63,617 nt of DNA from a virus (lineage: Duplodnaviria; Caudoviricetes), in IMG/VR virus record IMGVR_UViG_3300031576_000041, positions 1 to 63,617 of that record; one strand, given 5' to 3'. The position numbers and the translations under genes are program-made. The notes under the pieces were generated by a model. That model was not told the origin of the DNA. It made no database searches and worked only from the letters and a program-made list of their open reading frames with translations. This document shows positions 1 to 63,048 of this stretch, one piece after another. How positions within the stretch are numbered: the stretch's first letter is position 1; every line of letters begins with the position of its first letter.

Positions 1-127
1 CCCCGATGGCCAGGTTCTTTCTCTTGGCGGAAGCGCCGTCACCGTCACCAAGGACGACATACTTGTGATTTCATTCTGGTTTCATGCGGTGCAGGGCATG
101 GCGGTGAATTATGAAAACCGCCTGCAT
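1..127. repeat. Terminal direct repeat, left copy (circular assembly overlap)
   Basis: Identical to 63491-63617; an ORF reads through the junction in frame. Confidence 0.97.
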
Positions 128-9596: not shown

Positions 9597-9934
9597 GCCG
9601 GAACTGCCGGCGGTACTTCCCGGAGTTGGTTCAGATCGACCGCGCCCCATGCTGGAGCGCGACGTACAGGGAAGGCGAGGCCGTCGTTACCATCGATGGC
9701 ACGTCCACCGCGGAGTGCCCGGTCTCGTATATCACGGGGAAATCGTTTGAGCTTGTCTCTGCGTTCCATCGGGCAAACCTGGCCGGCGGGAAGGTGGGGA
9801 CGATGTACGGACCCGATATCAGCCAGTGGCCGGCGTGGGCGGTTGATGCCTGGTCCGTAATGGAGATGGAGCGTCGGCGCGTCGAAAGCACGTTGATGCA
9901 CGCGATGAGACAAAACAATGCCGAGCGGTCTTGA
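9506..9934 (+). CDS. Frameshifted chaperone extension (gpGT-like)
   Basis: -1 frame LRVAYHFFC...CGEC...NC... joins ORF 9626..9934. Confidence 0.7.
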   Translation, partial: LRVAYHFFCTGGWSDERFRCGECKRAGHFIGRNCRRYFPELVQIDRAPCWSATYREGEAVVTIDGTSTAECPVSYITGKSFELVSAFHRANLAGGKVGTMYGPDISQWPAWAVDAWSVMEMERRRVESTLMHAMRQNNAERS

Positions 9935-32321: not shown

Positions 32322-33845
32322 CTACTCACCGCCGAATCCACCGGCCGCGGCTCCGCCCATCGCGTTTTCCATTTCCTTGAGTCGCTCCTCTTTCTCCGCT
32401 GCATCGCGATCACTTTTGGGCGGGGCCGATTCCAGTTCCTTCATGACCTTGTCTCGCACGCTCTGCTCAACGTCTCCGAGGGCGGCTGTCGCCACGCGCT
32501 TCGCAAGAATCAGATCGAGCGTGTCACTTGGAAGTGCCAGACGTCGGACTGCTTCCGTATCCAGAACCTCCTTCTCTGTATCAGCCTCATCGAAGCTGAA
32601 CCCGCGAACCGTAATGGGTTCGGCATCGTCAGCTTTGCCAAGAAGCCCGCCGCGCGCCGTCAGAACGTCGCGGAGCACGCTCTTCATCCCGGCTCGCACG
32701 CGATCACCGAAGTCGTTCAAGACGTCGTGCGCCGGCATCATGTCCAGTTCCTTCGAATACCCGGACTGCATCGCTGGCGTGGCAGCGGCGCTCCGGCCCT
32801 GGGCCTGCAAGTATGCCTGGCGGTAGGCCTCTTCACGGAGAGAGTCCAACCGCTGCGCGGAGCGCTCGAAGGAGACCCCTCCCGGCTCCGCATACGAGAC
32901 GCTCGAACCCTTCCCAAGTTTGAAGTACCCCAACTCGCTCAACGTCACATTGGTGATTTCGTCATCCGTGATGATCACCGGCATCGCCAGATTTGCGACG
33001 AAGAGCGCCCACTTGTAGGTGTTATCGGTGTTGATGTGGTCGATCAACTGCAGATGGGTCCGGTTTCCAATCCACAGCGTGTCCGCGATGCTGAGGCGGC
33101 AAATCGGGACGCGCTTTGCGGCCGCCAGCGCGTGGATTCCTGAATCCAACAGCACGGCCTCGTCCTTCTTTTCCCGCTCGCCAACCTTGGTTCTGCGCTC
33201 GTAGACGGCGAACTCCTGGGTGCTGAAGTAATTCCATCGTTCGATGCAGACAGCAACATCCGCCAGGAATCCCTGCTCAATGTGCTCTGTCGCAATGACG
33301 GCCCACTCCAGGTTCCCCCAGGGGTCCATCTTCCAGTTGATGATGTTCAGTGGGGCGTAGGCGACCAAGTATGGGTCGAGCAATCCGGCCGCGACCTGCT
33401 CGGCGTAATTTTCCGGCGTGGACACACGGGCAGGAAGGTCGAGAAGCACGTAGGCGTTCTGATAGAGCAGCATGTAGCGGAACACGCGCCGGAAGAGGTC
33501 AACGAAGGTCGTACCCTGGCGGTCGCAGTTCTCAAGGAAGCCCTTCAGGAAGGCATCCTCGGCGGGGAGGTCGATTTCGGGGTCACGTCGAAACAGCGCG
33601 CTCTCGTACCAGCCCGCGATGGTGCCGAGGATGTTCTGGTAGGTAAACATCTGGAGCCTGGCCTCATAGACCTCGTTCGGCTCCTTCGGCCGCCTTATCA
33701 GAAACAGCCCGGCCTTGGATTTCAGGTGAGCGCCCCCCTCGCATAGCAGACTCACCGTCTCCCACGTGCCAGCATTGGAGGTCCAATCGGGGTGCTTTGC
33801 GTCAAGCACGCTGGCTTTAACCGTAGATGGAAATGGTTGCGCCAC
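32322..33845 (-). CDS. Portal protein
   Basis: HPDW...L.RRPKE...YEARL...Y.N; PY.V.Y...IINW; 507 aa. Confidence 0.85.
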   Translation of the reverse strand: MAQPFPSTVKASVLDAKHPDWTSNAGTWETVSLLCEGGAHLKSKAGLFLIRRPKEPNEVYEARLQMFTYQNILGTIAGWYESALFRRDPEIDLPAEDAFLKGFLENCDRQGTTFVDLFRRVFRYMLLYQNAYVLLDLPARVSTPENYAEQVAAGLLDPYLVAYAPLNIINWKMDPWGNLEWAVIATEHIEQGFLADVAVCIERWNYFSTQEFAVYERRTKVGEREKKDEAVLLDSGIHALAAAKRVPICRLSIADTLWIGNRTHLQLIDHINTDNTYKWALFVANLAMPVIITDDEITNVTLSELGYFKLGKGSSVSYAEPGGVSFERSAQRLDSLREEAYRQAYLQAQGRSAAATPAMQSGYSKELDMMPAHDVLNDFGDRVRAGMKSVLRDVLTARGGLLGKADDAEPITVRGFSFDEADTEKEVLDTEAVRRLALPSDTLDLILAKRVATAALGDVEQSVRDKVMKELESAPPKSDRDAAEKEERLKEMENAMGGAAAGGFGGE

Positions 33846-41771: not shown

Positions 41772-43112
41772 TCAGATTGGGGGTGCGCCGGCCATCAAGC
41801 CAGCTTTCGGGCGGATGCCGAACTTCTGCCAAGCGAAGTACCCCAACGCGTCCGAGAGATGGGTTAGCTTGAAGTTCCCTTTGTCTATATCGCCGTAGGC
41901 GTTCCCGCTGGCATCCGTTTTCCAGGAAACCTGACGGAAATCTGTCATTAACCCTGCGCAGGACTGATCCACGAAGAGACGTCTGGACCCGTTGTACGCC
42001 TTCAGGAGGGCGTTCATGGAATTCACCCGGTCCTTGACGGGTGGGTTGGCGGGGGGGACGTGGTACGTAGGGGCGTAGTTGGGGTGCTGGCCGAGAACCT
42101 GGCGCACCTGTACCCAGTCGGTTACCCCCGTCGCCCCCTGACGCGCACCGCCGCTGGCGTCGCCGTATACCTCGACGTGGAGCTTGCGGCCGGCCCGTGT
42201 CCACTGATTGGTGTAGTTCAGGAACGCATCACATGCCTGCGTCGTGCTGGCGTCTGGCAGAACAAGCTCGTGGAGAATCTGGACTTCTCCGCGGTCGTCG
42301 TATTGCCCGATGATGCTGCTCTCACGGATGACGTTGAAGTCCATCGCCCAAAAGAGCGGGCGAGTCGGGTCGTACCCCCCCTCCCGGATATTCTCGTCCC
42401 CGAAACAGTAGTAGACCTGCCCGCTGAACACGTTAAGGTAAAGACCAAGCGCCTCCTGTTGGTAGAACTTCTCATCGTAGCTGCTCTTCAGCTTCTCATA
42501 GAAGTCCGGTGTGCTCTTCAGGATAGCGGTGTTCTCGAATGGTTGCGCGATGACAGCTTCGTGGTCCGGTAGCCGGCGGGCCGGGTCCACAAATCTGCTG
42601 TACACCCAATCAAACCCCTTTGGGGTCCATGCACCGAAGCCGCACAGCAGAGTGGCCTTCGGGTGCCGCAGACGGCCGTCGAGACGCTTCAGGGATTCCT
42701 CTTTGCAGTACGTCATCTCGTCGACCCCGAACCAGGCCAAGTTTGGACCGCGGAGGCGTTCCGGGTTCTCCATCGTGCGGAGTAATATCGTGCTCCCGAT
42801 TTGTGTCAGCTTGATGTGGGAGTTTTTGATGTGGAGATACGGAATTTGAAATTGATTTAGTTGCGCCAGAATTTCTGGTACATCGACATCGTATAGCATG
42901 CGGTATGTCGGGGCGGCAATCAAGCCAACCAAACCAGGATTCACGGTCGATAGCCGGATGGATTCGTGCGCAAGGGCCACCGTCTTCCCGCTTCCGAGCG
43001 GGCCGGAGAACCCCTTATACCGGGCGGTGCTCCTCCAGAATCGAAGCTGACTGGGGTATCCGTCCCCGCCATCAGGACTCCGATATTTGATTGTTCTTAC
43101 GCGCCGGAGCAT
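41772..43112 (-). CDS. terL: Terminase large subunit
   Basis: GPLGSGKT, LRGPNL.WFGVDE, TPKG, MDFN, YGDASG, HLSDALGY. Confidence 0.95.
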   Translation of the reverse strand: MLRRVRTIKYRSPDGGDGYPSQLRFWRSTARYKGFSGPLGSGKTVALAHESIRLSTVNPGLVGLIAAPTYRMLYDVDVPEILAQLNQFQIPYLHIKNSHIKLTQIGSTILLRTMENPERLRGPNLAWFGVDEMTYCKEESLKRLDGRLRHPKATLLCGFGAWTPKGFDWVYSRFVDPARRLPDHEAVIAQPFENTAILKSTPDFYEKLKSSYDEKFYQQEALGLYLNVFSGQVYYCFGDENIREGGYDPTRPLFWAMDFNVIRESSIIGQYDDRGEVQILHELVLPDASTTQACDAFLNYTNQWTRAGRKLHVEVYGDASGGARQGATGVTDWVQVRQVLGQHPNYAPTYHVPPANPPVKDRVNSMNALLKAYNGSRRLFVDQSCAGLMTDFRQVSWKTDASGNAYGDIDKGNFKLTHLSDALGYFAWQKFGIRPKAGLMAGAPPI

Positions 43113-45718: not shown

Positions 45719-46723
45719 ATGCAAGCACAGGTAGCTGAAGCAACGGGCGCGCCCCCGGCGCCCCCGTTCAACGGCGGGCAGGCCCCTGCGCCACGCCCCC
45801 CTATCAACATTTTCGACAAAGCGGTTTGCCTTGCCGTCACCTATTCGGGCATCGGGAATCGGCGCAAGGTCTCCACCGCAACCATCGAAGTTGATGCCGA
45901 CAAGTCCATGATCGCCGTGAGCAAAATCCTTCTGGATAGCAAGGAGCTTCAGGCGATCCACCTACTGGACGCCAGGGTCCGTATCTACCTCCACGGTATC
46001 TGCCTTCCGAGCCTGTTCCGAAATGGCGTCTTTCTCCTACCCGTGGAACTCGTCGAGGAGGTGGAGGGCCGACTCAAGGATTTCGAGGTTGAGCGGAAAA
46101 ATCTGGTCGATGACCTCGTCCGGGCCATTCCGCAGCGCGTCGGCGAGGCGGCCGCCCGGCTCCGCGGCCAGTTCAACGAGGATGACTACCCCGGCGTCGA
46201 GCGGGTGAGCGAGACCCAGTTCCGCGTGGCGGATGCATCGAAGATACGGAACGAGTTTGATCTGTCCTGGCAGTACGTCGCCTTCAGCGTGCCAGGCAAG
46301 CTGAAGCAAATCAACGCCTCCATCTTCGAGTCTGAGCGCAAGAAGGCGGAGCAGAAGTGGGCCGAGGCTACCATCGCCATTGAGCAGATGCTTCGCACGA
46401 GCATGTCATCCCTCGTGGACCACCTGGTAGACAGGCTTAGCGCCAGTCCCGATGGGAAGAGGAAGAGGTTCCACGCGACGGCCATCACCAACCTGCAGGA
46501 ATTCCTCGGTACGTTCCGGGCCCGCAACATAACGGAGGACAAGGAATTGTCAGACCTGGTCGAGAGGGCGCAGCAATTGATCGACGGCGTGGACCCCGCT
46601 CTCCTTCGTACCAACGAGGGACTCCGTGACGTCATCCGCTCTGGTTTCGAGCAGATCAGGGGCAAACTGGATACAATGGTGGTCGACCAGCCGGACCGCA
46701 TGATCACTTTTGACGACGAATAG
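45719..46723 (+). CDS. DUF3150-like protein
   Basis: AAGGAG RBS; SKILL...G.FLLP...DYP...F...NIT.D..L. Confidence 0.6.
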   Translation: MQAQVAEATGAPPAPPFNGGQAPAPRPPINIFDKAVCLAVTYSGIGNRRKVSTATIEVDADKSMIAVSKILLDSKELQAIHLLDARVRIYLHGICLPSLFRNGVFLLPVELVEEVEGRLKDFEVERKNLVDDLVRAIPQRVGEAAARLRGQFNEDDYPGVERVSETQFRVADASKIRNEFDLSWQYVAFSVPGKLKQINASIFESERKKAEQKWAEATIAIEQMLRTSMSSLVDHLVDRLSASPDGKRKRFHATAITNLQEFLGTFRARNITEDKELSDLVERAQQLIDGVDPALLRTNEGLRDVIRSGFEQIRGKLDTMVVDQPDRMITFDDE

Positions 46724-47043: not shown

Positions 47044-47259
47044 GTGACACTTAGGACGATTACGATGCACGCGCGTATCCTACAAACGATTGACGCGCGC
47101 CGGGTAAGGGAAGGGTGCCCGGACATTGGGGCGGCGGTCGAGGCACAAATTCTCGCTCTCCACATCGATGGATTGGAGGAGGAGGTGGAAAAGCACGGAA
47201 ACAATTGGGACGACGCGCTGGGCCTCATCACAGGACGTCTTTACGGGAGGCTCCGATGA
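47044..47259 (+). CDS. Hypothetical protein
   Basis: ATGA coupling to the AAA gene. Confidence 0.45.
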   Translation: MTLRTITMHARILQTIDARRVREGCPDIGAAVEAQILALHIDGLEEEVEKHGNNWDDALGLITGRLYGRLR

Positions 47260-48752
47260 TGAACATGCTCCAGCAATTCAAGGCGGCGCGCCGAGTCAGT
47301 ACCCCACTCCTGGCAGTCCAGACGCCCGACCCGGCGGCGACCATTCGGACGATTATGGGAAGCCTCAACGGCGACGTCACCCCCGTGCTGGCCTGGGATA
47401 TCGTCCAAGCGCTCCATGCGCGCAATGAGCCAGGGCAGGCCGTCCTGGACAAACTCCTGGGGGGTGGTGACCCGGCATTGACCACCGGCAACCCGACCGA
47501 GATGCTTAGTCTGCTCAAGGGCCTACCGGGAGCGACGCGCGGAAAACCTGGCGCTGTGGTGTTCATGCACAGCGCGAACAGATTCATCCAGGAGACCAGC
47601 GTAGCGCAGGCGGTCTGGAATCTTCGGGACCGATTCAAGATGGATCAGCGAACGCTGGTTATGCTCGGGCCGTCGTTCTCGTTCCCGACAGAAATCACGC
47701 AGGACGTGACGATCCTCGATGAACTCCTGCCGGACGCTGCGGAACTTGTGGAAATCGTCCAACGGTGCTTCAAATCGGCCGGCAAGGACAACGTCGATCC
47801 GCAGGTCCAGGAGCGCGCCGTCGATGCCCTGTTGGGCCTCGCAGCATTCCCGGCTGAGCAAGTCACCGCGATGAGCATGACGTCCCAGGGCCTTGACCTG
47901 GCTGGAGTTTGGGACCGGAAACGGCAGATGATCAACCAGACCCCGAGCCTTTCTGTCTGGCGCGGCGGGGAGTCATTCGCCAGCATCGGTGGCTGCCAGA
48001 ACGTCAAGGAGTTCCTGCGCCGCGTGATGTTCGGTATGGAACGACCACGGTCCATCGTTTTCATCGATGAAATCGAGAAGGTCCTGGCCGGCACCGGCGA
48101 CACATCTGGAACCAGCCAGGCCATCCTTGGGTACCTGCTCACGTGGATGCAGGACAACAACGCCACGGGGGCGATCTTCATCGGACCGCCCGGTGCGGCC
48201 AAGTCCGCCGTCAGCAAGGCCGCCGGGAACGAGGCCGGAATCCCCACCATCGCTCTGGACTTGAGCGGGGTCAAGAACAGCCTGGTCGGGGAGACGGAGG
48301 GCCGGATGAGGAACGCCCTCAAGGTCATCCAGGCCGTCTCACAGAACCGCGCCTTCTTCATCGCCACCTGTAATTCCATCGGGGTTCTACCGCCCGAGCT
48401 TCGAAGGCGTTTCACCTACGGGACGTTTTTCTTTGATCTGCCAACCGCTGAAGAGCGCGAGGCCTGCTGGAATATTTACTGCAAGACGTACAGCGTGGGC
48501 GGGGATATACCGGACGACGAGGGCTGGACGGGTGCGGAGGTTCGGCAGTGCGCGATGCTCGCCCGGCAATTGTCATGCTCTCTCCAGGAGGCGGCGAAGT
48601 ACATCGTTCCCGTCTCTGTCAGCGCATCTGAGCAGATCGACCGGCTCCGGCAACAGGCATCTGGCCGGTTCCTGTCGGCCAGCAACCCTGGCATCTACCG
48701 CGCGGCCAAGCCTGCCACAGTGGGTTCGGGCGAAGCCCGCGCATTCGCATAG
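47256..48752 (+). CDS. Ycf46-like AAA+ ATPase with rearranged Walker motifs
   Basis: IVFIDEIEK precedes GPPGAAKS; SLVGETE, IATCN, LPPELRRRF, FFDLP..ER. Confidence 0.85.
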   Translation: MMNMLQQFKAARRVSTPLLAVQTPDPAATIRTIMGSLNGDVTPVLAWDIVQALHARNEPGQAVLDKLLGGGDPALTTGNPTEMLSLLKGLPGATRGKPGAVVFMHSANRFIQETSVAQAVWNLRDRFKMDQRTLVMLGPSFSFPTEITQDVTILDELLPDAAELVEIVQRCFKSAGKDNVDPQVQERAVDALLGLAAFPAEQVTAMSMTSQGLDLAGVWDRKRQMINQTPSLSVWRGGESFASIGGCQNVKEFLRRVMFGMERPRSIVFIDEIEKVLAGTGDTSGTSQAILGYLLTWMQDNNATGAIFIGPPGAAKSAVSKAAGNEAGIPTIALDLSGVKNSLVGETEGRMRNALKVIQAVSQNRAFFIATCNSIGVLPPELRRRFTYGTFFFDLPTAEEREACWNIYCKTYSVGGDIPDDEGWTGAEVRQCAMLARQLSCSLQEAAKYIVPVSVSASEQIDRLRQQASGRFLSASNPGIYRAAKPATVGSGEARAFA

Positions 48753-48774: not shown

Positions 48775-49500
48775 ATGGCCAAGGCCAATGACAGCCAGAT
48801 GATGGTCGAGAAGTACATGTCCAAGGTCGTCGCGATTGCCGAAAGTGTGTATGGGAATCTCCCGACTCGATTTGACCGGGAAGACCTAATACAAGAGGGA
48901 GCGTTGGGTCTCGTGGATGCCGCGGCAAAGTACGATTCAACCAAGAACGCGTCATTCGGTGCGTATGCCACGTACCGGGTCCGGGGGGCGATTCTGGACA
49001 GCTTGCGGCGGGGCGATTGGGTCTCGCGGACTTTGCGAAGGCAATCCAAACTGGCCGCCGCAAAGGAGCAGGATCTCGCAACAAGACTCGGCCGCAGCCC
49101 GACTGGATCTGAGATGGCACACGCGCTCGATGTCAGCCTGCGCACTTGGCAACGCATGTCGGCGCAGTTGTATGCCGCCGGCCTGGGGGAGAACTCGGCA
49201 GGGCACGGCGCGGAGGTCGACCAGCAGCCATCCACATACGATAGCCCAGAGCGTGCCTGCGCTAAGGCCGAACTCGCCAGTGCGCTGCTGTGTGCGATGC
49301 AGGGCCTGCGACCGCGATATCGGCGGGTGGTGGTCCTTCTGTACAGCCATGGGTGGACAATGAAGCAGATTGGGCGGGACCTCGGTGTCAACGAGAGCCG
49401 AACCAGCCAAATCCACAAGGCGGCCATACGAATCATGCGCGCCTCCATGCGCGACAGGGGGTTCACGAGCACGGCCCCTTTCCAGGAGGCCCTCGGGTGA
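48775..49500 (+). CDS. FliA/WhiG-family (sigma28-like) sigma factor
   Basis: DLIQEG.LGL.DA..KYD...F..YA..RVRGAILD.LR..DW; TMKQIG..LGVNESR.SQIH. Confidence 0.9.
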   Translation: MAKANDSQMMVEKYMSKVVAIAESVYGNLPTRFDREDLIQEGALGLVDAAAKYDSTKNASFGAYATYRVRGAILDSLRRGDWVSRTLRRQSKLAAAKEQDLATRLGRSPTGSEMAHALDVSLRTWQRMSAQLYAAGLGENSAGHGAEVDQQPSTYDSPERACAKAELASALLCAMQGLRPRYRRVVVLLYSHGWTMKQIGRDLGVNESRTSQIHKAAIRIMRASMRDRGFTSTAPFQEALG

Positions 49501-50929: not shown

Positions 50930-51994
50930 GTGGCGGAAAACAGATCAATCGTACCCGCACCAATCGACAAGCGCGTCGTGGAGGTCAGGGGATTCCTGGA
51001 GAAGGCGACCCGTGATATCGCCCGAGCGATGCCCAAAATCCTGGCCGCCGACGGGAAGTCGATGGTGCCGAGGATCGACCCCGACAGATTCAAACGCATC
51101 ATCCTTTCGCTGGTCGGACGGCCGGGCATGGACTACGTAACGCCTGTGAGCTTCGCCAAAGCCGCGATCCGTGCGGCGTCCCTGGGGCTGGACCCCGAGC
51201 CGACCCTCGGGCAATTCTCGCTCGTTCCATTCGGGAAGGAACTTCAGGTCATCGTCGGCTACCGTGGCATCATCGAGCTTGCGTTGCGATCCGACCGTGT
51301 CGAGTACGTGCGCGCCGATGTGGTCTACTCCGAGGACGTTTTTGTCTACAGCACGGGCCTGATTCAGGAGTTGAAGCACGAACCGAACCTCGACGCCGAT
51401 CAAACCGGAAAGGAGCCGCGCCTGGCTTACGCCGTGGCGCTCCTGAAGGGTGGCTCCAGCATCGTGATGGTCCTCCCGAAGTGGAAAATCATGGCCCGCA
51501 AGGCCAGGTCCAAGGCGGTCGTCAGGGCGCAGGAAAAGAACGCGAAGTTGCGGCCAGGCGAAAAGCAGAGCACGACGCCGTGGGATACGGACCCGAACGC
51601 CATGTGGATGAAAACGGCGGTGCGCGCCCTGTGGCCGTGGCTGCCTCAATCGACCGACTCCCCGGTTTCCTTGGCCGTTGACGCCGATGCCGATGTGGAT
51701 ACCGAAGATCAACCCATCGAGGCGGAGTTCAATATCGTTGACGGGCAGGAGGAAGCCACGGACGAACCGCCCGCCCAAGAAGGACCTGCCAAGCCGCCGA
51801 AGAGCGGCACAGGCTTGAAGCTGTCGGATTTCGTGGAGTTCGAGCAGGACAGACTTCTCCATGCGATGAAAACCGCCGAGGGAATGAACCGCGCCAAGGT
51901 GGAAGCCTGGCTGGCGACTTTCCAAGGCAATGCCCAGGGCGCTCTCGACTATGCAGACGAGCGGCTGGCGATCAAAACGGAGGGAAGTAAATGA
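50930..51994 (+). CDS. recT: RecT-family single-strand annealing protein
   Basis: LGLDP...GQ..LVPF...IVGYRG.I.LA.RS...PW.TD...MW.KT..R. Confidence 0.9.
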   Translation: MAENRSIVPAPIDKRVVEVRGFLEKATRDIARAMPKILAADGKSMVPRIDPDRFKRIILSLVGRPGMDYVTPVSFAKAAIRAASLGLDPEPTLGQFSLVPFGKELQVIVGYRGIIELALRSDRVEYVRADVVYSEDVFVYSTGLIQELKHEPNLDADQTGKEPRLAYAVALLKGGSSIVMVLPKWKIMARKARSKAVVRAQEKNAKLRPGEKQSTTPWDTDPNAMWMKTAVRALWPWLPQSTDSPVSLAVDADADVDTEDQPIEAEFNIVDGQEEATDEPPAQEGPAKPPKSGTGLKLSDFVEFEQDRLLHAMKTAEGMNRAKVEAWLATFQGNAQGALDYADERLAIKTEGSK

Positions 51995-53362: not shown

Positions 53363-54568
53363 ATGAATCAGCCACAGCATTCGCTGTTGCCGATCATTAC
53401 CCAGCGGCCCATCTCCAAGAGCACCGTGCGCGCGATGGGCTGCGAGCGTCACTATGCCGAGTACCATCTCGGCAATCCGATCCTCCGACAAGTCGCTTCC
53501 CCCCTCGCCCAAACGGGAACGGATTTCCATGTCTATCGACAGGAATACGTCGCACACCTGATCGATGTGGGGCAGGAACAAGACGGCCCGTGGGTTGAGG
53601 CTTGGCTGTCGAAACGGGCAGTGTCCGACGAGGCCCGCGCCATGATCGAGAGGGACCTTCGGTTCTTCCGGGTGGACCCGGAGGCCGTGTTCGGGAGCGA
53701 GGTTTTCCTGTCCATAAATCGCGACATGGAACCCCTGGAACGGCTGAGCGGCCTTGCGCCTGGCACCACGTCGGAGCGGCCGGACGCCTACGTTACAGGA
53801 ATGCTGGACCTCTTGATTCTGTCAGGGGCGTTGGCTTCCATTGTAGATTACAAGACCGGCTGGAATGCCTCTGGCGTTCAGGATCACGAGGCCGCCATCA
53901 ACGCCCTGCTGGTTTTCGCTCACTTCCAGCAGGTTGAGGAGGTCTACTTTACGTGGGAATTTGTGCGGGCCGGTGCCGGCAAACCTCCCGTCCGCTACAC
54001 CAGGGATGATATGGACTGGCTCCGCCGCATGGCCCACAGCGCACACGCACGGCGCGAGGATATCGAACGGCGTCGGACCAGAGGCGAACCGCTGTCCGTA
54101 AACCCATTCGCTGGGCTGTGCCAGTTCTGCCAGTTGACGTGCCCGTTACGGGAAGCGGTCACCAGGGGCCTCGTGGAAATTCCTCCGATTCAAACAGACG
54201 ATGACGCCAGGCTGATAGCGCAGCGAGTCGCGGTTGCGGAGGCATACGTTCGGGGCGGCCGCGCTCTGCTTCGTCCGTTTCTCGACCAGCGGGGAGCGCT
54301 TGACCTCGGAGGCGGGTACGAGGCTACAATGGCGGTGAGGACCGAGCAGAAGTTCCCGCTCGACGCTGTACTTCGGGTTCTTGGTCAGCAGGAATGGGGA
54401 ATCCCGCTGAGTAGCCTGACCGTTTCGGCGTCAAAGCTGAAGGGCTATGCGAAGGCGAAGAAGCGAGCCGGCCTGTCGGAGCTTCTTGATGCTATCGCCA
54501 TCAAGTGGCCAAAGTCAATCCTGCGGCTCGGAAAGGCGAACGACGAACTTGAGGAAGGGGATGTCTGA
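53363..54568 (+). CDS. PD-(D/E)xK exonuclease (RecB/Cas4-like, Cys staple)
   Basis: GT.FH, GMLDL, IVDYKTG; N-terminal Cys plus CQFC...CP. Confidence 0.8.
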   Translation: MNQPQHSLLPIITQRPISKSTVRAMGCERHYAEYHLGNPILRQVASPLAQTGTDFHVYRQEYVAHLIDVGQEQDGPWVEAWLSKRAVSDEARAMIERDLRFFRVDPEAVFGSEVFLSINRDMEPLERLSGLAPGTTSERPDAYVTGMLDLLILSGALASIVDYKTGWNASGVQDHEAAINALLVFAHFQQVEEVYFTWEFVRAGAGKPPVRYTRDDMDWLRRMAHSAHARREDIERRRTRGEPLSVNPFAGLCQFCQLTCPLREAVTRGLVEIPPIQTDDDARLIAQRVAVAEAYVRGGRALLRPFLDQRGALDLGGGYEATMAVRTEQKFPLDAVLRVLGQQEWGIPLSSLTVSASKLKGYAKAKKRAGLSELLDAIAIKWPKSILRLGKANDELEEGDV

Positions 54569-54851
54569 AGCCGAACACATAGCTAAGATTGAGGTGGAGC
54601 TGGAGCGCTACCGCCAGATGCTTGGCTGCCAGGAGAGAACGGTTCCGAGAACCTTCCGCATCGAGATGGCTATCACGCCGGATGGAGGAGTAGTGATCAT
54701 TGCGACAGACACGCATGGGGCAGAGGAGCGTCTCGTGAAACTGATCGCGGCGCAGCTTGGTCTCGTTTTGCGGGTTTCCATGCGTTTGGCCAAACGCATA
54801 CCGCCCCCCACGATCTCACCGCTTGAGGGGGCGCCCCCCGCCGATGCCTGA
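54561..54851 (+). CDS. Hypothetical protein
   Basis: Overlaps both neighbours. Confidence 0.5.
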   Translation: MSEAEHIAKIEVELERYRQMLGCQERTVPRTFRIEMAITPDGGVVIIATDTHGAEERLVKLIAAQLGLVLRVSMRLAKRIPPPTISPLEGAPPADA

Positions 54852-56196
54852 TTTACTCCAGAATGGCCTGCCCTCCAGCCTCGAAGCCGAGCAGTTCGTT
54901 CTGGGTAGCGTCCTGCTCGGCGACCAAGCCCTACCCCAGGCCGCCGGCATTTTGCGATCTGAGGACTTCACCATCGAGAAGCACAGGCGCATTTACGCCA
55001 GGATGCTCGATCTGTACGCGCGCGGCGAGAAGATCGACTACCTGACGCTGATGGAGGAATTGAATCGCAACGGGCAGCTCGCATCGGTAGACGGCGTTGC
55101 CTACCTCTCGGCGCTCACCGAAGGCATGCCGCGCTTCGAAAACATCGAAGCCTACGCGCGCATCGTTAAAGGGAAAGCCGTTCTGCGCCAGACGATCTTT
55201 GCGTCGCAGGCGACCATCGACGACTGCATGGCTTCCGGTGATGAGCCAGGCGAGGTCCTCAACAGGGCTGAGGAACGGCTGCTTCAGGTCGGAGAGCTTC
55301 GAATGCGCGGCGGTTTGCTTACGCCACGCGAGGTTCTCGATGCGTTTCCTGGCGGACTGGAAGCTTTTCTGGACCCGACCAAGAGGAAGCGCGGGCTGGA
55401 AACCGGGTTCCTGAAATTCGACGAGATGACCACTGGCCTCCATCCCGGCGACCTCATGATCCTGGCTGGCCGCCCCGCGATGGGCAAGACGGCCATGGCG
55501 CTCACAATTGCCGGCAGGGTCGCGCTGCAGAATGTCCCTGTGGCGATCTTCTCGTTGGAGATGACTTCGAGCAGTCTGCTTACCAGGATGCTATCGGCCA
55601 TTGGACGGGTTGATTCCGTGAGGTTCAGAAGCGGTTTTCTCGGTCAAGAGGAGCGGCAAAGGCTACGCGCCGGACTCAACCGCATAGTTCAGATGCCAAT
55701 TCGGATGGACGACACCTCCGCGGTCAACTGCATGGATATTCATGCGAAGTGCCGACGCATGAAGCAAGCCACAGGGCTTGGCCTGATCGTAATCGACTAC
55801 CTGCAGTTGATGGTGTCTGGCGAGAAGGCGGAGAACCGGAACCAGGAAGTCTCGCGTATGACGCGGTCGTGTAAAATGATCGCCAAAGACCTGGACGTTC
55901 CGGTGCTACTTCTTTCGCAACTGAACCGTTCTGTCGAGACACGCGGTGGTGACCACCGACCCCTGCTCAGCGATCTGCGCGAAAGCGGTTCCATCGAACA
56001 GGACAGCGATATTGTCGCCTTCGTTTTCCGCGAAGAAATCTACAAGCCAGACCGTGAGGACCTCCGGGGCCTGGCAGAGTTGATTGTTCGGAAGCAGCGC
56101 AATGGGCCAACCGGAACGGTTGACCTCGTTTTTCTGGATACATGCACGCGATTCGAGAACCGAGTACGGGCTGGTGACCTGGTAGAATCCGAGTGA
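54844..56196 (+). CDS. dnaB: Replicative helicase DnaB
   Basis: AEQ.VLG, GRPAMGKT, FSLEM, IDYLQL, LSQLNR, DLRESGSIEQD, KQRNGP. Confidence 0.97.
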   Translation: MPDLLQNGLPSSLEAEQFVLGSVLLGDQALPQAAGILRSEDFTIEKHRRIYARMLDLYARGEKIDYLTLMEELNRNGQLASVDGVAYLSALTEGMPRFENIEAYARIVKGKAVLRQTIFASQATIDDCMASGDEPGEVLNRAEERLLQVGELRMRGGLLTPREVLDAFPGGLEAFLDPTKRKRGLETGFLKFDEMTTGLHPGDLMILAGRPAMGKTAMALTIAGRVALQNVPVAIFSLEMTSSSLLTRMLSAIGRVDSVRFRSGFLGQEERQRLRAGLNRIVQMPIRMDDTSAVNCMDIHAKCRRMKQATGLGLIVIDYLQLMVSGEKAENRNQEVSRMTRSCKMIAKDLDVPVLLLSQLNRSVETRGGDHRPLLSDLRESGSIEQDSDIVAFVFREEIYKPDREDLRGLAELIVRKQRNGPTGTVDLVFLDTCTRFENRVRAGDLVESE

Positions 56197-56388: not shown

Positions 56389-56786
56389 TCTGTAAGTTCA
56401 CTATCCTGGGGCCACCCCGAACGAAGAAGAACCATGGTGCAATTGTCCGTCCAGGCTATGGGAACAGGGGGCGACCGATTATCCTACCGAGCAGACAGTA
56501 CCGCCGGTGGTTCTCAGATTCCATGGTGCAAGTACCCCAGATCTTGCGTTTGCTGGCGCAGGGAGCGCCCCTGGCGCGTCCCGTGAACGTCGGTGCCATA
56601 TTCTATCGGCAAACCGCCTGCGGCGACGCCGTGGGCTACTACCAGGCCCTGGCCGACTGGCTGGAGGGGGCGGGGGTGGTCGAAAACGACCGCTGGATCA
56701 CGTCGTGGGACGGCAGCCGGATGCGGAAGGACAGCGCGAACCCCAGGGTGGATGTGGAAATCTCGGAGGCCCCGTGGGAAGGCTGA
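56367..56786 (+). CDS. RusA-like Holliday junction resolvase
   Basis: G.P.TKKN...D...D.L..AGV.ENDR...PRV.VEI. Confidence 0.75.
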   Translation: MARTGTLICKFTILGPPRTKKNHGAIVRPGYGNRGRPIILPSRQYRRWFSDSMVQVPQILRLLAQGAPLARPVNVGAIFYRQTACGDAVGYYQALADWLEGAGVVENDRWITSWDGSRMRKDSANPRVDVEISEAPWEG

Positions 56787-57574
56787 AATATTTTCATTTC
56801 TTCCCCGACGACTGGTTGTCATCGACCAAAGTCAACTCCATGAGCCTGGCGGAGCAGGGGGCCTACCTTCGATTGCTCTGCCACGCATGGACCGCCCAGG
56901 ACGGTGGTGTTCCGAAAGATGAAGAATCCCTGGCTCGATTGAGCGGTCTCGGCGACGAAGGGTGGTCGAAGGGTGCTTCAAGGGTGCTTCGATGCTTCGA
57001 TGTGGAAAAAGATGGTCGTCTATTCAACGTGAGACTTCTCCAGGAGGTCACGAAACAGGAAGAGTGGCTTGAAAGGTCTCGGTATGGAGGGGTTAATTCC
57101 GGTAAGTCTCGTAGAATTAAGGCGTTGGGAGACGTAGCGGTCGAGCAAGCAGTGGCCGAGGCACTGAAGGGAGGCCGAAGCACCCTTGAAGCACCCTTCA
57201 AGCACCCTTCCAAGGGTGGTTCAAGCACCCTACCAAGCACCCTACCAAGCAAAAGCGAACAGGGGGACACAGAGACTGTAGTTGACTGTTTTAATGACTT
57301 CTTAAAGAAATACCCAAGGCAGGAAAAACTTGATGAATGCTGCCGCTGCTATATTTCGGTGATCGATTCACCTGAAAAGCACGCGCAGTTGATGGCCGGA
57401 TTGGAAAGGTGGCTGGCCAGCGACCAGTGGAATCGGGATGGGGGCCGGTTTGTGCCTACCCCGTCAAGGTTCATCATGCAGAAGCTGTATATCGACAACC
57501 CAGCCCCGGCGCGCGCCAGCGGTCGGACAGCCAGCGCGCTGGAGGAAGCACAGGGCCGCCTGAAGGGACGATGA
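56774..57574 (+). CDS. Replication initiator (DUF1376/YdaU-like N-terminus)
   Basis: F.F...DWL......MS..EQGAY.RLL..AW; C-terminal F...YP...W....G.FVP.P..F. Confidence 0.8.
   Translation: MGRLKYFHFFPDDWLSSTKVNSMSLAEQGAYLRLLCHAWTAQDGGVPKDEESLARLSGLGDEGWSKGASRVLRCFDVEKDGRLFNVRLLQEVTKQEEWLERSRYGGVNSGKSRRIKALGDVAVEQAVAEALKGGRSTLEAPFKHPSKGGSSTLPSTLPSKSEQGDTETVVDCFNDFLKKYPRQEKLDECCRCYISVIDSPEKHAQLMAGLERWLASDQWNRDGGRFVPTPSRFIMQKLYIDNPAPARASGRTASALEEAQGRLKGR
56958..57250. repeat. Iteron-like AAGCACCCT repeats (putative origin)
   Basis: Direct copies at 57178, 57189, 57200, 57223, 57235; inverted copies at 56970, 56981, 57213; AT-rich patch at ~57288-57312. Confidence 0.75.
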
Positions 57575-58144: not shown

Positions 58145-58498
58145 ATGGCAAAGTCTTGGACATCCCGTCGTATACTGGAAACGTGCCGCGCCCCTACAAG
58201 GAGCCAGGAGTACCTGAACTTCATTCGGTACCAGCCGTGCCTAGTATGTGTGATAAGAATCCAGAGGCAGGAAACCAGAACAGAGGCCTCGCACACGGGA
58301 CCGCATGGCCTTGGCCAGAAGTCATCGGACCTCACGGCGATTCCGCTTTGCGCCGGGCACCATCGCACCGCTCGCGATGGATATCACCAGATGGGGCCGG
58401 TTAGATTTCAGGAGCATCACGGCTTCAGCATCCCGGAAGCCATTGAGAGGTTGAACACGATGTTCGACGCCCGAAAAGGAGAACACTATGCGCCGTAA
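58145..58498 (+). CDS. DUF968-like HNH/Zn protein
   Basis: YL.FIR.QPC..C...H...G.G.K.SD...IPLC..HH. Confidence 0.75.
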   Translation: MAKSWTSRRILETCRAPTRSQEYLNFIRYQPCLVCVIRIQRQETRTEASHTGPHGLGQKSSDLTAIPLCAGHHRTARDGYHQMGPVRFQEHHGFSIPEAIERLNTMFDARKGEHYAP

Positions 58499-61400
58499 CG
58501 AGTTCCCGCCGACGACCCTGAGCGTCGCGCGGGCTGGCCGCCGGGAACGCCCCCTCCTGCGTTCCTGGCGGCCGTTTCTGCTGGCGGCGGCCCTGGCGGT
58601 TTTACCGGTGACCGCTGCCACAACCACCATCAAGGACATCCTCTACCGCGCCAACAACACCAAGGCCTCCGGCCTCGTGGTGATTTCCTGGGGTTCCTTC
58701 GCATGCGGTGCGCGGACAATTGCCGCCGGCCAGGTGTCCGTAAACGTGATCGCTGGGGCATTCCGCATCGACCTCGAAGCAAACGACGCCTGCACGCCGG
58801 CAGGAACCAGCTATGCTGTTCGGTACAACCTCGATGATCGTACGACGAAGTTCGAGAACTGGGTCGTGCCGACCAGCGCGACAGCAAAAACCATCGCGGA
58901 TGTTCGGGTCACGAGCGTACCGACCCCAAGCGTTCTCCTCCAACTATCGCAACTGGCTGGCTCCGGCGCGAAGGGTGGGATGCTGGCCTCAAGTGGAACG
59001 GGATGGACAAGGGTTGGCGTGGGGGCGAACAACGATGTGCTCACCGCAGATTCGACTCAAGCAACCGGGGTCAAGTGGGCGGCAGGGGGAGGCGGGACCT
59101 TCTACCAGACGTGGCAGAACACCGGAACCGCCGTTACGCAGCGGCCCACAGGGAACTTCGGCAACGGCCTTCAGGTGGTCGACAACGCCGGGTCCACGAG
59201 GACCGAGGTAAGCCCTGTTTACGGAACCGCCACCAACACCGTTGCCCAGGGGAACGATGCTCGATTTCCAGTAACAGACGAGAAGGCTGCGCTGGCCGGG
59301 ACCAGCGGGACACCGAGCGCGACCAACAGGTACGTCACCGATGGCGACGCCCGCAACACGAATGCCCGAACGCCGAGCGGCACGGCGGGCGGGGACCTGA
59401 CTGGCACATATCCGAATCCAACCCTCGTCACATCTGGGGTAACGGCTGGAACCTACACGAAGGTCACCGTGGATGCGAAAGGCCGGGCGACCACAGGGGC
59501 GACGGCGGGATCGACAGACCTCAGCGATTCGGCTTCGCTGGCGCGCAGGGATGCCTCGAACACGTTCTCCGGTACGACCACGCACGACTTTGGGGCCAGC
59601 ACGATTACGGTGGTGATCCCGAAGAAAACCGATCCCGGCACGCCGACGGCAGGTGAGTGCTGGATCAACGGTGCCGCGATCAAGTGTCGGGACAATGGTG
59701 GGACGCCGGCGACGCGCTCCGTGGTTCACGATGGTACCTCTGCCGGGGGGGACCTGACGGGGACTTACCCAAGCCCCACGCTGGTGACCAGCGGGGTTGC
59801 CGCGGGGACCTATGGGAGCGCGACCCAGTCACCGCAGATCACAGTGGATGCCAAGGGCCGCTTGACGGCGGCATCCAACGTAACAATCACGTCGTACTCG
59901 ACGGTTCAGGAAGAGGGCACATCGCTGGCACAAAGGGCGCTCCTGAACTTCGTAGGCAGTGCCCTTACTGCAGCCGACAACGTGACAAAAACCGACGTCA
60001 CGGTTGACGCCGAGGTTAATGCTTTAGCGGACCTGGCCGCGAACGGGCTTGTAACGAGAACCGGCGCGGGCGCGATAACCGCACGCTCTATAGCCGGTAC
60101 GGCCGGCAAGATCGTCGTGACCAACGGCGACGGCGTCTCTGGTAACCCATCGCTCAACACTGGCACTGACATCGTGGACGAGACGCAGGCGAACACCTAC
60201 GCGGTGGGGGCAAAGCAGACATTCCGCAATTCAGCAACCACCGCCGGCGTCAACCTAGAATCCAGCGCGGACCCATCCACGTTAAGCCAGGGAGATTTTT
60301 GGCTCAACACAGATGACGTACGGTGGCGGGGCGCAACCGTAACACAAACAGCAGAACGTCTAGCGAACAAAAACGCCGCAAGCGGATACGCTGGCCTTGA
60401 CTCGGGATCGCGCATCGCGAAGGCGCAAGCCCCAGCGGTCACAGTCTATACCGATCAGGGAAATACGTGGACTACCGGAACACAGGACTTTACGGTAGCC
60501 GGCGTTACGAGGCCGTTCCGAAGGCTTGCGTTCGCCGGCTTCCCAGGGACATGTACCATCAATCAGGACATGCTGATTCGCACGGACCCGTCAGCGGCGG
60601 GGCTTGTCCTGTACATCTGCAATTCGGCCGGCACTGGGTGGGACCTCGTAGGCGACGCCGGGTCGGGCTCCGGCATCACAACACTGAACAGCCAGACTGG
60701 GGCGGTACAAACGTTCACAAACGACACAAACGTCACAATCACCAGCGCCAGCAACGCCCATGCCCTGGGATGGGCTGGGAACCTTTCGGTGGCGCGCGGG
60801 GGAACAGGAGTAGGGACGTTGGCACTGAACGGGGTTTTGATCGGCAACGGAACCAGCAACGTAGTTGTCACGGCCGCCGGCACGGCTGACAAGGTGCTTG
60901 GTGTTCCGAACGCCGGAGGAACACCGACCTTCGATCAACTGATGATCGCGCGGGTTGGCGATCTGGATGTGGTTCGCACCAACGCAACAACGCTCACCAT
61001 TGGGACAAACTGCACCACCACATATCCGTGCAACGTGCGTTTCGGCAACACGGTCTACAGCTTCACCGGCTCGGCCACGGCGGTCATTACGGCTGGAACA
61101 GGGACCGCTTACGTGTACGTCGCCCTGGACGGTACGTTGACCGTGGGCCACAACGTTACGATCACCTGTACTGGATGCACCCAGGTCCCTGGCGTCACAG
61201 CATTTCCAGTGGATTCAATCCCGTTGTGGGCATGGGGTGCGGCGGTAGCTACCACGTGGGACGCCAACGGCGTGTCGCCAGGGAACGGGAACAGGCGCGC
61301 CTTCCTGGGTGCCAAAAACGTCATTAGCGGAACGGGCATCACCACGACAGAAAGTGCAGGGAGAACCACCGTTGCGGCTGACACCGCAGTGGTGTTCCTC

Positions 61401-61700
61401 AAGAATCAAGAGGTGGTAACCTTCTCCGCTACGCCTACATTCAACGCGGCCAATTTCAACTCTTTCAAAATGACGCTCACCGCCAACGTTACGAGCAGCA
61501 CGCTGAGCAATCAGGGGGCGGGTCAAATAGTGACGTTTCTGTTGTGCCAGGACGGGGTTGGAGGCAGAACGATGACGTGGCCGGCGAACGTAAAGGGCGG
61601 CATGACCCTGGGGGGAACGGCAAGCACCTGCTCCGCCCAGCCGATGCTTTGCGATGGCACGAACTGTTACGCTCTGGGATCAGGAGTTCAGAACCAGTAA
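58488..61700 (+). CDS. Large fibre-like protein with a signal-peptide-like N-terminus
   Basis: T/G/A-rich; AGGDLTGTYP.PTL...VDAKGR repeated at ~59385 and ~59742; C-terminal QDG.GGRT.TWP. Confidence 0.75.
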   Translation: MRRNEFPPTTLSVARAGRRERPLLRSWRPFLLAAALAVLPVTAATTTIKDILYRANNTKASGLVVISWGSFACGARTIAAGQVSVNVIAGAFRIDLEANDACTPAGTSYAVRYNLDDRTTKFENWVVPTSATAKTIADVRVTSVPTPSVLLQLSQLAGSGAKGGMLASSGTGWTRVGVGANNDVLTADSTQATGVKWAAGGGGTFYQTWQNTGTAVTQRPTGNFGNGLQVVDNAGSTRTEVSPVYGTATNTVAQGNDARFPVTDEKAALAGTSGTPSATNRYVTDGDARNTNARTPSGTAGGDLTGTYPNPTLVTSGVTAGTYTKVTVDAKGRATTGATAGSTDLSDSASLARRDASNTFSGTTTHDFGASTITVVIPKKTDPGTPTAGECWINGAAIKCRDNGGTPATRSVVHDGTSAGGDLTGTYPSPTLVTSGVAAGTYGSATQSPQITVDAKGRLTAASNVTITSYSTVQEEGTSLAQRALLNFVGSALTAADNVTKTDVTVDAEVNALADLAANGLVTRTGAGAITARSIAGTAGKIVVTNGDGVSGNPSLNTGTDIVDETQANTYAVGAKQTFRNSATTAGVNLESSADPSTLSQGDFWLNTDDVRWRGATVTQTAERLANKNAASGYAGLDSGSRIAKAQAPAVTVYTDQGNTWTTGTQDFTVAGVTRPFRRLAFAGFPGTCTINQDMLIRTDPSAAGLVLYICNSAGTGWDLVGDAGSGSGITTLNSQTGAVQTFTNDTNVTITSASNAHALGWAGNLSVARGGTGVGTLALNGVLIGNGTSNVVVTAAGTADKVLGVPNAGGTPTFDQLMIARVGDLDVVRTNATTLTIGTNCTTTYPCNVRFGNTVYSFTGSATAVITAGTGTAYVYVALDGTLTVGHNVTITCTGCTQVPGVTAFPVDSIPLWAWGAAVATTWDANGVSPGNGNRRAFLGAKNVISGTGITTTESAGRTTVAADTAVVFLKNQEVVTFSATPTFNAANFNSFKMTLTANVTSSTLSNQGAGQIVTFLLCQDGVGGRTMTWPANVKGGMTLGGTASTCSAQPMLCDGTNCYALGSGVQNQ

Positions 61701-61726: not shown

Positions 61727-62713
61727 GTGAACACGAAAACACAGCTTAGCACCTTGGTGGTGTGCGTCGTAGCCGCTGCCGTTCTCTTGGCCCAAGACAG
61801 AGACGTTCCGGCGCGGGTTTTCGATGCAGTGACCGGTTTCCGCATTGGCGGAGCGGCCACGACTGGGCGGCATCTTCGCGGCAACGGCACAAACTATGTT
61901 CAGTCGACCGGGGCGTTTGCAGGCACGGGCTCCTGCACCAACCAGTTTCCACGAACCCTCAACGATGATGCTGTCCCAACATGTGCGGACGTAGTCCCGG
62001 CAGACTTCGCCTCACAGACGGCGAACTTTTTACTCATCGCGCCCGATGGAGCGGCTGGCGAACCAACGTTCCGGGCCATGGTCGATGCGGATATTCCCGC
62101 AGCAATAACCAGAGACACAGAGTGGCCAGGTGCGTCGGCGACACTGACGAACAAGACCATTGACGTAGAAGCCACCGGAAACGCTGTCACTACGGTGACG
62201 AAGATCAACCTTGTGGCGGCGGGCTGTAATAACGCCACGGCAGGGCCGGGATGGGACGTTCCAACCAGCAACGGCCCGACCGGGACATGCTACGGCACAT
62301 CGCCACAACGATTTGGTGGTTTGGATTTCGCCGACGGCGCATCAGCGCTAACATCGACCACGCATTTCCGTTTGCCCTCAGACTGGACCGGAGCAACCGA
62401 TGTGCAGTTTATATGGTTCTCGGGGTCCACGTCTACGAATTCGGTTGTGTGGACACTGGCGACAGCCTGTATTGCAGACGCCGAGGATTTGCTTGCCCCG
62501 ACATTCAACGCCGTCCAAACCGTAGCCGATGCCAACAACGCGACCGCCAATACGAGGAATAGCGCATCCATCGCCAGCATAACGGTAACGGGGTGCGCTG
62601 CGGGGGAGACACTGTTTGCGCGAATCGGGCGCGACCCCACCAACGCCAGCGATACGCTGGCCGCCACGGCGGCTCTGTTGGATCTGGAAATCACAATGCG
62701 GAGGCTACAGTGA
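61727..62713 (+). CDS. Exported/fibre-associated beta protein
   Basis: LVVCVVAAAVLLA|QD; PTFRA.V.ADIP; LPSDW. Confidence 0.65.
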   Translation: MNTKTQLSTLVVCVVAAAVLLAQDRDVPARVFDAVTGFRIGGAATTGRHLRGNGTNYVQSTGAFAGTGSCTNQFPRTLNDDAVPTCADVVPADFASQTANFLLIAPDGAAGEPTFRAMVDADIPAAITRDTEWPGASATLTNKTIDVEATGNAVTTVTKINLVAAGCNNATAGPGWDVPTSNGPTGTCYGTSPQRFGGLDFADGASALTSTTHFRLPSDWTGATDVQFIWFSGSTSTNSVVWTLATACIADAEDLLAPTFNAVQTVADANNATANTRNSASIASITVTGCAAGETLFARIGRDPTNASDTLAATAALLDLEITMRRLQ

Positions 62714-62715
62714 AA

Positions 62716-63048
62716 ATGACGCGTCGTGGTTTGTTGGCCCTGTTCCCGGCCATGTCCTGCGTGGGCGGGATCAAGACAGAGGACCCAGGCGTGGTCATTA
62801 CCGACTGGCGGCCGGGTTGCGTGACGTACCAAAGCGACAAGGAGGCATGGGTGATAAATGGTGTGTGTATCGCCTGCGGTGAATGTGAGGTCGGCAGCCG
62901 GAATCCAAACCTCGTGTGGACGGGGAAGCTGGTAGGGACTCCGGGCGCATGCCTGGACAGAACATTTGGGAAGCGCCGCGACGTTCCGGTTAGGCCGGAA
63001 ATCTCGGAGCATCCGCACTGCACGCTTTCGGGGAGGTACATCCGATGA
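62716..63048 (+). CDS. Small Cys-rich protein with a twin-arginine-like start
   Basis: MTRRGLL; CIACGEC. Confidence 0.55.
   Translation: MTRRGLLALFPAMSCVGGIKTEDPGVVITDWRPGCVTYQSDKEAWVINGVCIACGECEVGSRNPNLVWTGKLVGTPGACLDRTFGKRRDVPVRPEISEHPHCTLSGRYIR

Follow-up and report, generated by a model that had tools for sequence, protein, structure and literature searches.

A phage-encoded Cdc48/Ycf46-like AAA ATPase with Walker B ahead of Walker A belongs to a large clade that shares this motif order

The DNA analysed here, referred to as the window, is a stretch of 63,617 nucleotides comprising positions 1 to 63,617 of the IMG/VR virus record IMGVR_UViG_3300031576_000041 (Duplodnaviria; Caudoviricetes). 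It derives from a metagenomic tailed-phage contig of approximately 66 kb and covers most of that phage genome. One of its genes encodes a two-domain AAA ATPase of 498 residues (P0001; Table 1) in which the block carrying Walker B stands ahead of the block carrying Walker A, with the flanking parts of the chain in place. This swapped order is a real, heritable trait of a large clade. The explanation that best accounts for all observations, and which is considered highly probable as a whole, is that P0001 is a Cdc48/Ycf46-like ATPase with two internally exchanged blocks, a retained canonical fold, a single evolutionary origin of the exchange and a role as a protein remodeller. A dead, D1-like N-terminal domain would here be followed by an active C-terminal AAA module, in which beta3-alpha3 with Walker B comes directly after alpha0. 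Next would come the unit beta1-alpha1-beta2-alpha2, which carries Walker A and the pore loop, and then beta4, the arginine fingers and the lid. The active site would be built from the usual residues, and the three loops alpha0-beta3, alpha3-beta1 and alpha2-beta4 alone would be rewired.

Along the chain, the motifs of the module appear as IGGCQNVKEFL (residues 244-254), IVFIDEIEK (267-275), LLTWMQD (294-300), GPPGAAKS (310-317), SLVGETEGR (342-350), FFIATCN (367-373) and LPPELRRRF (378-386), which departs from the classical order of Walker A, pore loop, Walker B, sensor 1 and arginine fingers. The breakpoints coincide with the N-terminal ends of the strands beta3, beta1 and beta4, so defined that block B holds beta3 and alpha3 and block A holds beta1 to alpha2. 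A preliminary description of this DNA, made from the letters alone, had reported Walker B before Walker A with unmoved flanks over positions 48054-48440 (residues 267-395), and both the motif positions and the crossed matches described below bear this out. The hhhhDE pattern of Walker B (h, hydrophobic) is found in IVFIDE at residues 267-272, while the Walker A pattern GxxxxGK[ST] is matched incompletely, as GPPGAAKS keeps the lysine and the serine and has alanine in place of the glycine before the lysine.

Alignments to canonical AAA proteins were crossed, as the preliminary description had anticipated. In a phmmer search of the PDB, residues 304-362 of P0001 paired with residues 44-102 of the VAT chain 5vc7_A, and residues 261-309 paired with residues 99-148 of the same chain. 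The Pfam AAA profile (PF00004) was matched with 57.5 bits (cut-off 21.2) in three stretches, the best of which placed residues 307-360 on profile positions 2-55. With a hidden Markov model (HMM) of the canonical family, built from 123 normal-order relatives, native P0001 gave four crossed pieces scoring 284.9 bits in all: residues 19-258 on model positions 18-239 (88.3 bits), 266-303 on 312-353, 300-362 on 248-310 and 366-495 on 355-487. A script-made copy in which residues 266-305 and 306-365 had been exchanged matched the same model in a single piece spanning positions 18-487, with 322.6 bits. No collinear alignment of the native sequence to a canonical AAA domain was obtained with Pfam, PDB phmmer or the family HMM. 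The match to phrog_8638 (E 2.6e-48), which consists of a homologous N-domain followed by one AAA module, was likewise broken into four stretches, the best covering residues 8-256, and the NCBIfam CDC48 model returned 21.9 bits for P0001 (cut-off 802.65) versus 85.5 bits for a normal-order relative.

Such an order could be an artefact of the contig, resulting from misassembly or from a chimeric or frameshifted gene model, and this must be considered for a metagenome-derived sequence, of which the sole run that holds the window may be its own source. The artefact is nevertheless judged exceedingly improbable. The ATPase frame is uninterrupted, as the preliminary description had stated, and a 7811-bp contig made from one run by a second assembler spans positions 47700-48700 with 0 differences and no joint. 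Moreover, the order recurs in 344 of 344 close relatives of many sources, in a cultured isolate (Tunturi_3) and in 40 loci of metagenome-assembled genomes (MAGs). Since it is present in every close homologue examined, the swapped order is not a product of chance.

The relatives were collected in several ways. A word-indexed protein search with P0001 scored 7999 candidates, 2579 of them at E <= 0.001, and the best 120 of these 2579 matches, which shared 52-62% identity with P0001 over 94-100% of its length, were used. An exhaustive phmmer search of 1.84 billion cluster representatives returned 6572 at E <= 0.001, 3590 at <= 1e-10 and 1242 at <= 1e-30, of which the best 150 were typed. Together with 120 proteins from a search with a normal-order relative, 78 IMG/VR genes and 3 proteins of named phages, the 270 proteins from the two P0001 searches gave 471 typed proteins. 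Typing was based on HMMs of the blocks A, B and C; regular expressions, which these replaced, had assigned no order to 30 of 270 proteins and to 13 of 78 loci. The order was B-A-C in 344 proteins, A-B-C in 123, A-B in 3 and C-A-B-C in 1. The three A-B proteins (Corndog gp96, HJ05 gp65 and one truncated protein) all show the normal order and have a C block that is weak. The 270 relatives retrieved with P0001 were B-A-C without exception, as were 73 of the 78 IMG/VR genes and gp103 of Tunturi_3, a cultured Tunturiibacter phage with a complete genome, whose protein is 41.6% identical to P0001 over 96% of the query. Bacterial and archaeal assemblies contributed 80 further loci, of which 40 were complete B-A-C, 8 were fragments and 32 had normal order; the first two groups came mostly from Acidobacteriota MAGs, with others from Nitrospirales, Pirellulaceae, Chthonomonadales and further groups. 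Homologues with equal order, for which the preliminary description had suggested a search, are therefore found in all 344 close relatives examined.

Three of the swapped relatives (P0122, P0203 and P0220) carry inteins, of LAGLIDADG type, HNH type and mini-intein form. As judged by the break points of the matches, the insertion sites lie near query residue 316, the Walker A lysine, and near residues 373-374, at sensor 1.

The phylogeny was assessed on alignments in which the swapped rows had been re-ordered by script. The rows comprised P0001, every fourth listed representative shorter than 600 aa, every fourth or twelfth protein of the set found around the normal-order locus L078, 8 low-identity swapped IMG/VR genes, L078 itself, 11 swapped and 32 normal-order genome loci, Tunturi_3 gp103, Corndog gp96 and HJ05 gp65, the remaining relatives being left out. 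In the first tree (47 swapped and 33 normal rows, 80 in all), the swapped rows fell on one side of a branch with a support of 100 in the Shimodaira-Hasegawa-like approximate likelihood ratio test (SH-aLRT). When the columns of the swapped region were removed, the swapped group was again split off (SH-aLRT 99), and the same support of 99 was reached in a third tree with those columns removed and 58 swapped and 45 normal rows (103 in all), the normal rows including diverse phyla. The trees show the swapped proteins as one clade nested among normal-order relatives. Each of the three trees separates the swapped rows from the normal ones by a single branch, which agrees with a single origin. The sister group is less certain, as the normal-order row that comes nearest (L148, from Alienimonas) sits on a long branch. 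The swap would have arisen once, most simply by a tandem duplication of A+B in which the first A and the last B later disappeared, in analogy with other permuted proteins, for which duplication and subsequent loss are the accepted route.

Residue conservation was counted over 340 swapped proteins. The Walker A lysine K316, the following S/T317 and the Walker B glutamate E272 were present in 340/340, and D271 in 337/340. The sensor-1 asparagine N373 was found in 340/340, the arginines R385 and R384 in 339/340 and 319/340, respectively, and, in the WTGAE motif of the lid, G426 in 336/340 and E428 in 305/340. The residue preceding the Walker A lysine was far more variable (A 188, G 119, S 23, other 10). 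The preliminary description had drawn attention to the AKS variant alongside the swap; its deviation from the consensus stands, with Ala for Gly, whereas its role as an element of the rewiring was rejected, alanine being the commonest state but unlinked to the swap. In the 123 normal-order proteins the corresponding motif was SPPGCGKS in 123/123, with serine in place of the first Walker A glycine. The aromatic position of the pore loop was leucine in 270/340 swapped proteins, compared to F 78 and L 45 in the normal-order set.

These counts bear on the notion that the upstream DEIEK segment is a relic, and that the module is a Walker B-less pseudo-ATPase or a nucleotide-binding scaffold. The deviant Walker A, the pore-loop leucine and the fact that activity is a prediction would fit such a view, but it is considered very unlikely. 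The two acidic residues D271 and E272 are kept almost without exception in proteins that are 40-62% identical to the query, sensor 1 and the arginine fingers are invariant too, and no other acidic strand occurs between alpha2 and sensor 1. In addition, coevolution, detailed below, ties the strand 266-271 to beta4 and beta2 and links residue 266 to the end of alpha2.

Coevolution within the family was analysed by mean-field direct coupling analysis (DCA) of the 340 swapped proteins, out of 344, that did not exceed 620 aa (effective number of sequences Meff 295; 27,261 pairs). The top coupling, 266-362, joins the residue that opens beta3 to one at the end of alpha2, positions that are near-adjacent in a normal-order chain, at the former junction. 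The helices alpha3 and alpha2 were coupled in parallel register (289-348, 293-351, 297-359), alpha0 was coupled to alpha1 (247-315, 250-319, 254-323, 258-327) and to beta5 (250-393). Among the strand pairs, the highest z sums were those of beta3-beta4 (12.7), beta1-beta5 (11.7) and beta2-beta3 (11.1); beta1-beta4 reached 8.9, and beta3-beta1 (5.2) and beta3-beta5 (5.5) were among the lowest. The AlphaFold2 (AF2) model of P0001, with a predicted local distance difference test score (pLDDT) of 78.6, shows five module strands, one of them 266-270, and a helical lid. Residues 229-469 of the model superposed by VIA on p97 D2 (3cf0_A) with Z 15.7 and a root-mean-square deviation (rmsd) of 2.5 Å over 200 residues. 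The part of the module left unaligned is about the size of block B, as would be expected of a sequential aligner, which must skip one block. The whole model (residues 2-491) matched p97/Cdc48 D1-D2 (7lmz_C) with Z 17.9 and rmsd 7.2 over 412 aligned residues, and Foldseek gave 9mpq_C with E 8e-12.

Coevolution and fold prediction together support the AAA fold being kept, with a probable sheet order of 5-1-4-3-2 in which beta3 lies between beta4 and beta2. From the known AAA fold, each new connection would cross the sheet in the direction of the one that it replaces, and the right-handed crossovers would therefore be preserved. It could be argued that the swap instead changed the fold, giving a new strand order or domain arrangement, and that the normal-looking model reflects a bias of AlphaFold. 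The pLDDT of 65-71 over residues 271-290, an unexpected beta4-beta5 coupling and the indirect nature of the evidence on strand pairing lend something to this argument. It is still regarded as quite unlikely, since the coevolution signal, which is independent of AlphaFold, ranks beta3-beta4, beta1-beta5 and beta2-beta3 at the top with alpha3 and alpha2 parallel, since the active-site residues are all conserved, as is expected only if they still meet, and since the new connections are inferred to keep the right-handed crossovers. The claim of a natural internal re-wiring of the P-loop fold, made in the preliminary description, gains support from the family comparison, the inheritance of the trait within a clade, and the coevolution and fold prediction.

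Several points weigh against the explanation by exchanged blocks in a conserved fold. The z sum of beta4-beta5 (9.9) exceeds that of beta1-beta4 (8.9), which the canonical sheet does not predict, and the evidence for the sheet order is indirect, coming from coevolution and not from a solved structure. The alanine before the Walker A lysine or the leucine in the pore loop could lower or alter activity, and it is a prediction that the protein hydrolyses ATP, forms a ring and has the role proposed for it. Size and purity of the clade are known only for the relatives covered, which include the best 150 of the 1242 phmmer representatives at E <= 1e-30, and the run behind the second assembly, which may be the source of the window DNA, may not constitute independent data. 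As for the route of origin, no duplication intermediates (A-B-A, B-A-B or A-B-A-B) were found in the 471 typed proteins and the 80 genome loci, and the one- or two-block patterns in the latter were truncated or broken open reading frames (ORFs).

The ATPase gene is the last of a four-gene module that heads a rightward operon, preceded by genes for proteins of 103, 66 and 334 aa (Table 1). The ORF list gives 47115..48752 for the ATPase, with an upstream GTG as the start and an uninterrupted frame. The ATG at 47256 is most likely the true start, and is preferred because homologues begin at the equivalent MxxFLxQFKAARRVSTP; a ribosome-binding site, GGGAGG, is located at 47245-47250, five bases ahead of it. 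A putative ORF of 71 aa (47044-47259, +) overlaps this start by 4 nt and has no homologue in 79 related viral loci.

The 334-aa partner had no match in Pfam, PHROGs or NCBIfam, though the ESM Atlas groups it with DUF3150 clusters. Its AF2 model has a pLDDT of 91.2; Foldseek returned no match in the PDB at E <= 0.001 and no recognisable solved relative, and a wide VIA search gave generic helical-bundle matches over residues 200-327 alone (Z up to 9.7). A homologue of the partner was located within 6 kb (<=6 kb) of the ATPase gene and on the same strand in 77 of the 79 viral loci, the two exceptions having short flanks; it lies upstream of the ATPase in the window and downstream in most of the viral loci L004-L082. 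The partner HMM also matched 34 of the 40 swapped and 17 of the 32 normal-order genome loci. The partner thus occurs with both orders, and the pairing of ATPase and partner is therefore older than the swap. Homologues of the 103-aa and 66-aa proteins were found near the ATPase in 28 and 29 of the viral loci, respectively. Neither protein gave anything in Pfam or PHROGs, and none of the 24 and 26 family members scanned matched the Ycf35 (DUF1257) or DUF2997 Pfam families at E <= 0.01. The family of the 66-aa protein, which has no Pfam match, has a histidine-rich end with the consensus HxHxxHxHxH.

A C-terminal tail of the form R-x-hydrophobic-x-hydrophobic-acidic was present in 98 ORFs versus 15 in the control window, out of 5530 ORFs. 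It is carried by the partner, as (K/R)PxRxIxF followed by acidic residues, by the ATPase family, as GRxIxLE, and by several small module proteins. In the window the partner tail (46697-46720) is a clear fit, and the ATPase ending ARAFA and the TRFAIARRA of the 103-aa protein are partial ones. A minus-strand ORF of doubtful status (62691-63041) also has the sequence KPRRVIF close to its end. The best guess at function is that the ATPase forms a ring and acts as an ATP-driven protein remodeller that works with the DUF3150-like protein. Such an ATP-hydrolysing ring would remodel proteins together with its neighbour at the head of an operon that also holds sigma-factor, recombination and replication genes.

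The closest point of comparison is provided by normal-order Ycf46-like ATPases, such as Mycobacterium phage Corndog gp96, Aeromonas phage HJ05 gp65 (H10PHJ05_65), the protein of locus L078 and the proteins P0272-P0391. The last of these are labelled 'SpoVK/Ycf46/Vps4 family AAA+-type ATPase' in their source, as are L078-type proteins. They share with P0001 an N-domain and one active AAA module, the blocks A and B and the C-terminal part all being homologous, and, with the blocks brought into the same order, L078 and P0001 are 34% identical over 465 aligned columns. In Corndog gp96 and HJ05 gp65, the DE(I/V)EK...LTWMQ block stands at its normal place after alpha2, with the N-domain and flanks as in P0001. 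The normal-order loci L078-L082, like the 17 genome loci mentioned above, also carry the DUF3150-like neighbour. The normal-order proteins differ in having Walker A ahead of Walker B and a tail of the form RRK[IV]...PSxN. The type II ATPases Cdc48, p97 and VAT, which are the best sequence and fold matches of P0001 (PDB phmmer, Foldseek, VIA), resemble it in having two stacked AAA-like domains, a sensor-1 asparagine and a double arginine finger. The pore loop of p97 D1, KLAGE, is similar to the SLVGE of P0001. In contrast to these proteins, P0001 has a first domain without the P-loop lysine, a swapped module and no N-terminal double-psi barrel domain.

Natural re-ordering of nucleotide-binding motifs with a retained fold is known from the circularly permuted GTPases YjeQ/RsgA and YlqF, and permuted DNA methyltransferases were reportedly described by Bujnicki in 2002. 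In those cases the permutation is circular and the chain termini move, whereas in P0001 two neighbouring internal segments are exchanged and the flanks stay. A further difference is that the change in P0001 affects an AAA+ member of the P-loop fold. It is tempting to regard it as the first natural non-circular permutation in the catalytic core of the AAA+ proteins, which belong to the additional strand catalytic E (ASCE) class, and as perhaps adaptive and not neutral. By placing Walker B and alpha3 behind the N-domain linker, the swap may couple the catalytic glutamate to N-domain motions, so that binding of the partner or of a shared tail could gate hydrolysis in a way that a normal-order AAA protein cannot. 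This proposal is put forward tentatively and is rather doubtful.

Table 1. Location in the window of the ATPase gene, its parts, the module genes and other annotated genes.
Feature	Position	Strand	Basis or remark
ATPase gene (P0001), 498 aa, two-domain Cdc48/Ycf46-like AAA ATPase	47256..48752	+	stop included
N-terminal domain, aa 1-230, putative degenerate AAA-like D1 without Walker A lysine	47256..47945	+	phrog_8638, normal-order HMM
IGGCQNVKEFL, aa 244-254, N-linker and helix alpha0 of active AAA module	47985..48017	+	
Relocated block B, aa 266-305, 40 residues, strand beta3 and helix alpha3	48051..48170	+	out-of-order HMM match
Walker B IVFIDEIEK, aa 267-275, in block B	48054-48080	+	
LLTWMQD, aa 294-300, within alpha3 of block B		+	
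Block A, aa 306-365, 60 residues, beta1-alpha1-beta2-alpha2	48171..48350	+	matches hmm 248-310 and PDB AAA chains
Walker A GPPGAAKS, aa 310-317, in block A	48183-48206	+	
Pore loop SLVG, in block A	48279-48290	+	part of SLVGETEGR, aa 342-350
beta4 with sensor-1 Asn (AFFIATCN, aa 366-373) and Arg-finger region LPPELRRR	48351..48410	+	in-order match from hmm 355
Arg fingers R383-R385	48402-48410	+	in LPPELRRRF, aa 378-386
Helical lid subdomain, aa 398-467, WTGAE motif aa 424-428	48447..48656	+	helices in AF2 model; conservation
C-terminal tail GEARAFA, short degenerate copy of family R-x-h-x-h-acidic tail	48729..48749	+	low pLDDT
Partner gene, 334 aa, DUF3150-like, C-terminus DRMITFDDE	45719..46723	+	ESM Atlas lead
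Small module gene, 103 aa	44982-45293	+	homologues near ATPase in 28 or 29 of 79 viral loci
Small module gene, 66 aa	45290-45490	+	homologues near ATPase in 28 or 29 of 79 viral loci
Sigma factor, sigma-70 family, rightward block	48775-49500	+	phrog_351, E 1.8e-27
RecT, rightward block	50930-51994		
Exonuclease, rightward block	53363-54568		
DnaB-like helicase, rightward block	54757-56196		
Primosomal protein, rightward block	56507-57574		
Large terminase	41772-43112	-	
Portal	32322-33845	-	
Tape measure	9918-12986		

In the window the sigma factor gene comes immediately after the ATPase gene; the 79 related viral loci showed no homologue of it in their flanks. Elsewhere in the window, three very large ORFs (14721-20762, 65-4006 and 58488-61700, all +; 2013, 1313 and 1070 aa, respectively) have little or no PHROG annotation, the 2013-aa one showing a weak major-tail-protein-like stretch alone, and the gene at 25967-27154 (+) encodes a ParB-like domain fused to a DNA methyltransferase (phrog_498, E 5.4e-111).

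The succession of Walker A and Walker B is treated as fixed in P-loop ATPases, and annotation by motifs and profiles relies on that order. Full-text literature searches for a permuted or reversed Walker order returned no AAA+ protein in which Walker B comes first, and passages of PMC10853773 and PMC2422856 gave no AAA+ case of reversed order. A literature search for DUF3150 gave one unrelated preprint only, the match examined from a search on Ycf46 and phage concerned an SGI1 antitoxin, and the main text of the Tunturi isolate paper has 0 occurrences of 'ATPase' or 'AAA'. What appears to be new here is a Ycf46/Cdc48-type AAA ATPase whose catalytic core has been permuted internally and in a non-circular way.

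The results describe a large natural clade, of at least 344 proteins and 40 MAG genes, that breaks the Walker order yet keeps every catalytic residue. For annotation this means that profiles see only a fragment of a swapped protein, and the analysis draws attention to an ATPase/DUF3150 module that is widespread among soil phages and previously unstudied. The clade amounts to a natural experiment in which a strand-helix unit of the AAA core has been re-threaded and the change is tolerated, and the existence of swapped and normal-order homologues allows folding, allostery and mechanics to be compared directly. Since Tunturi_3, which encodes one member, is in culture together with its host Tunturiibacter psychrotolerans X5P2, the predicted properties of these ATPases are testable.

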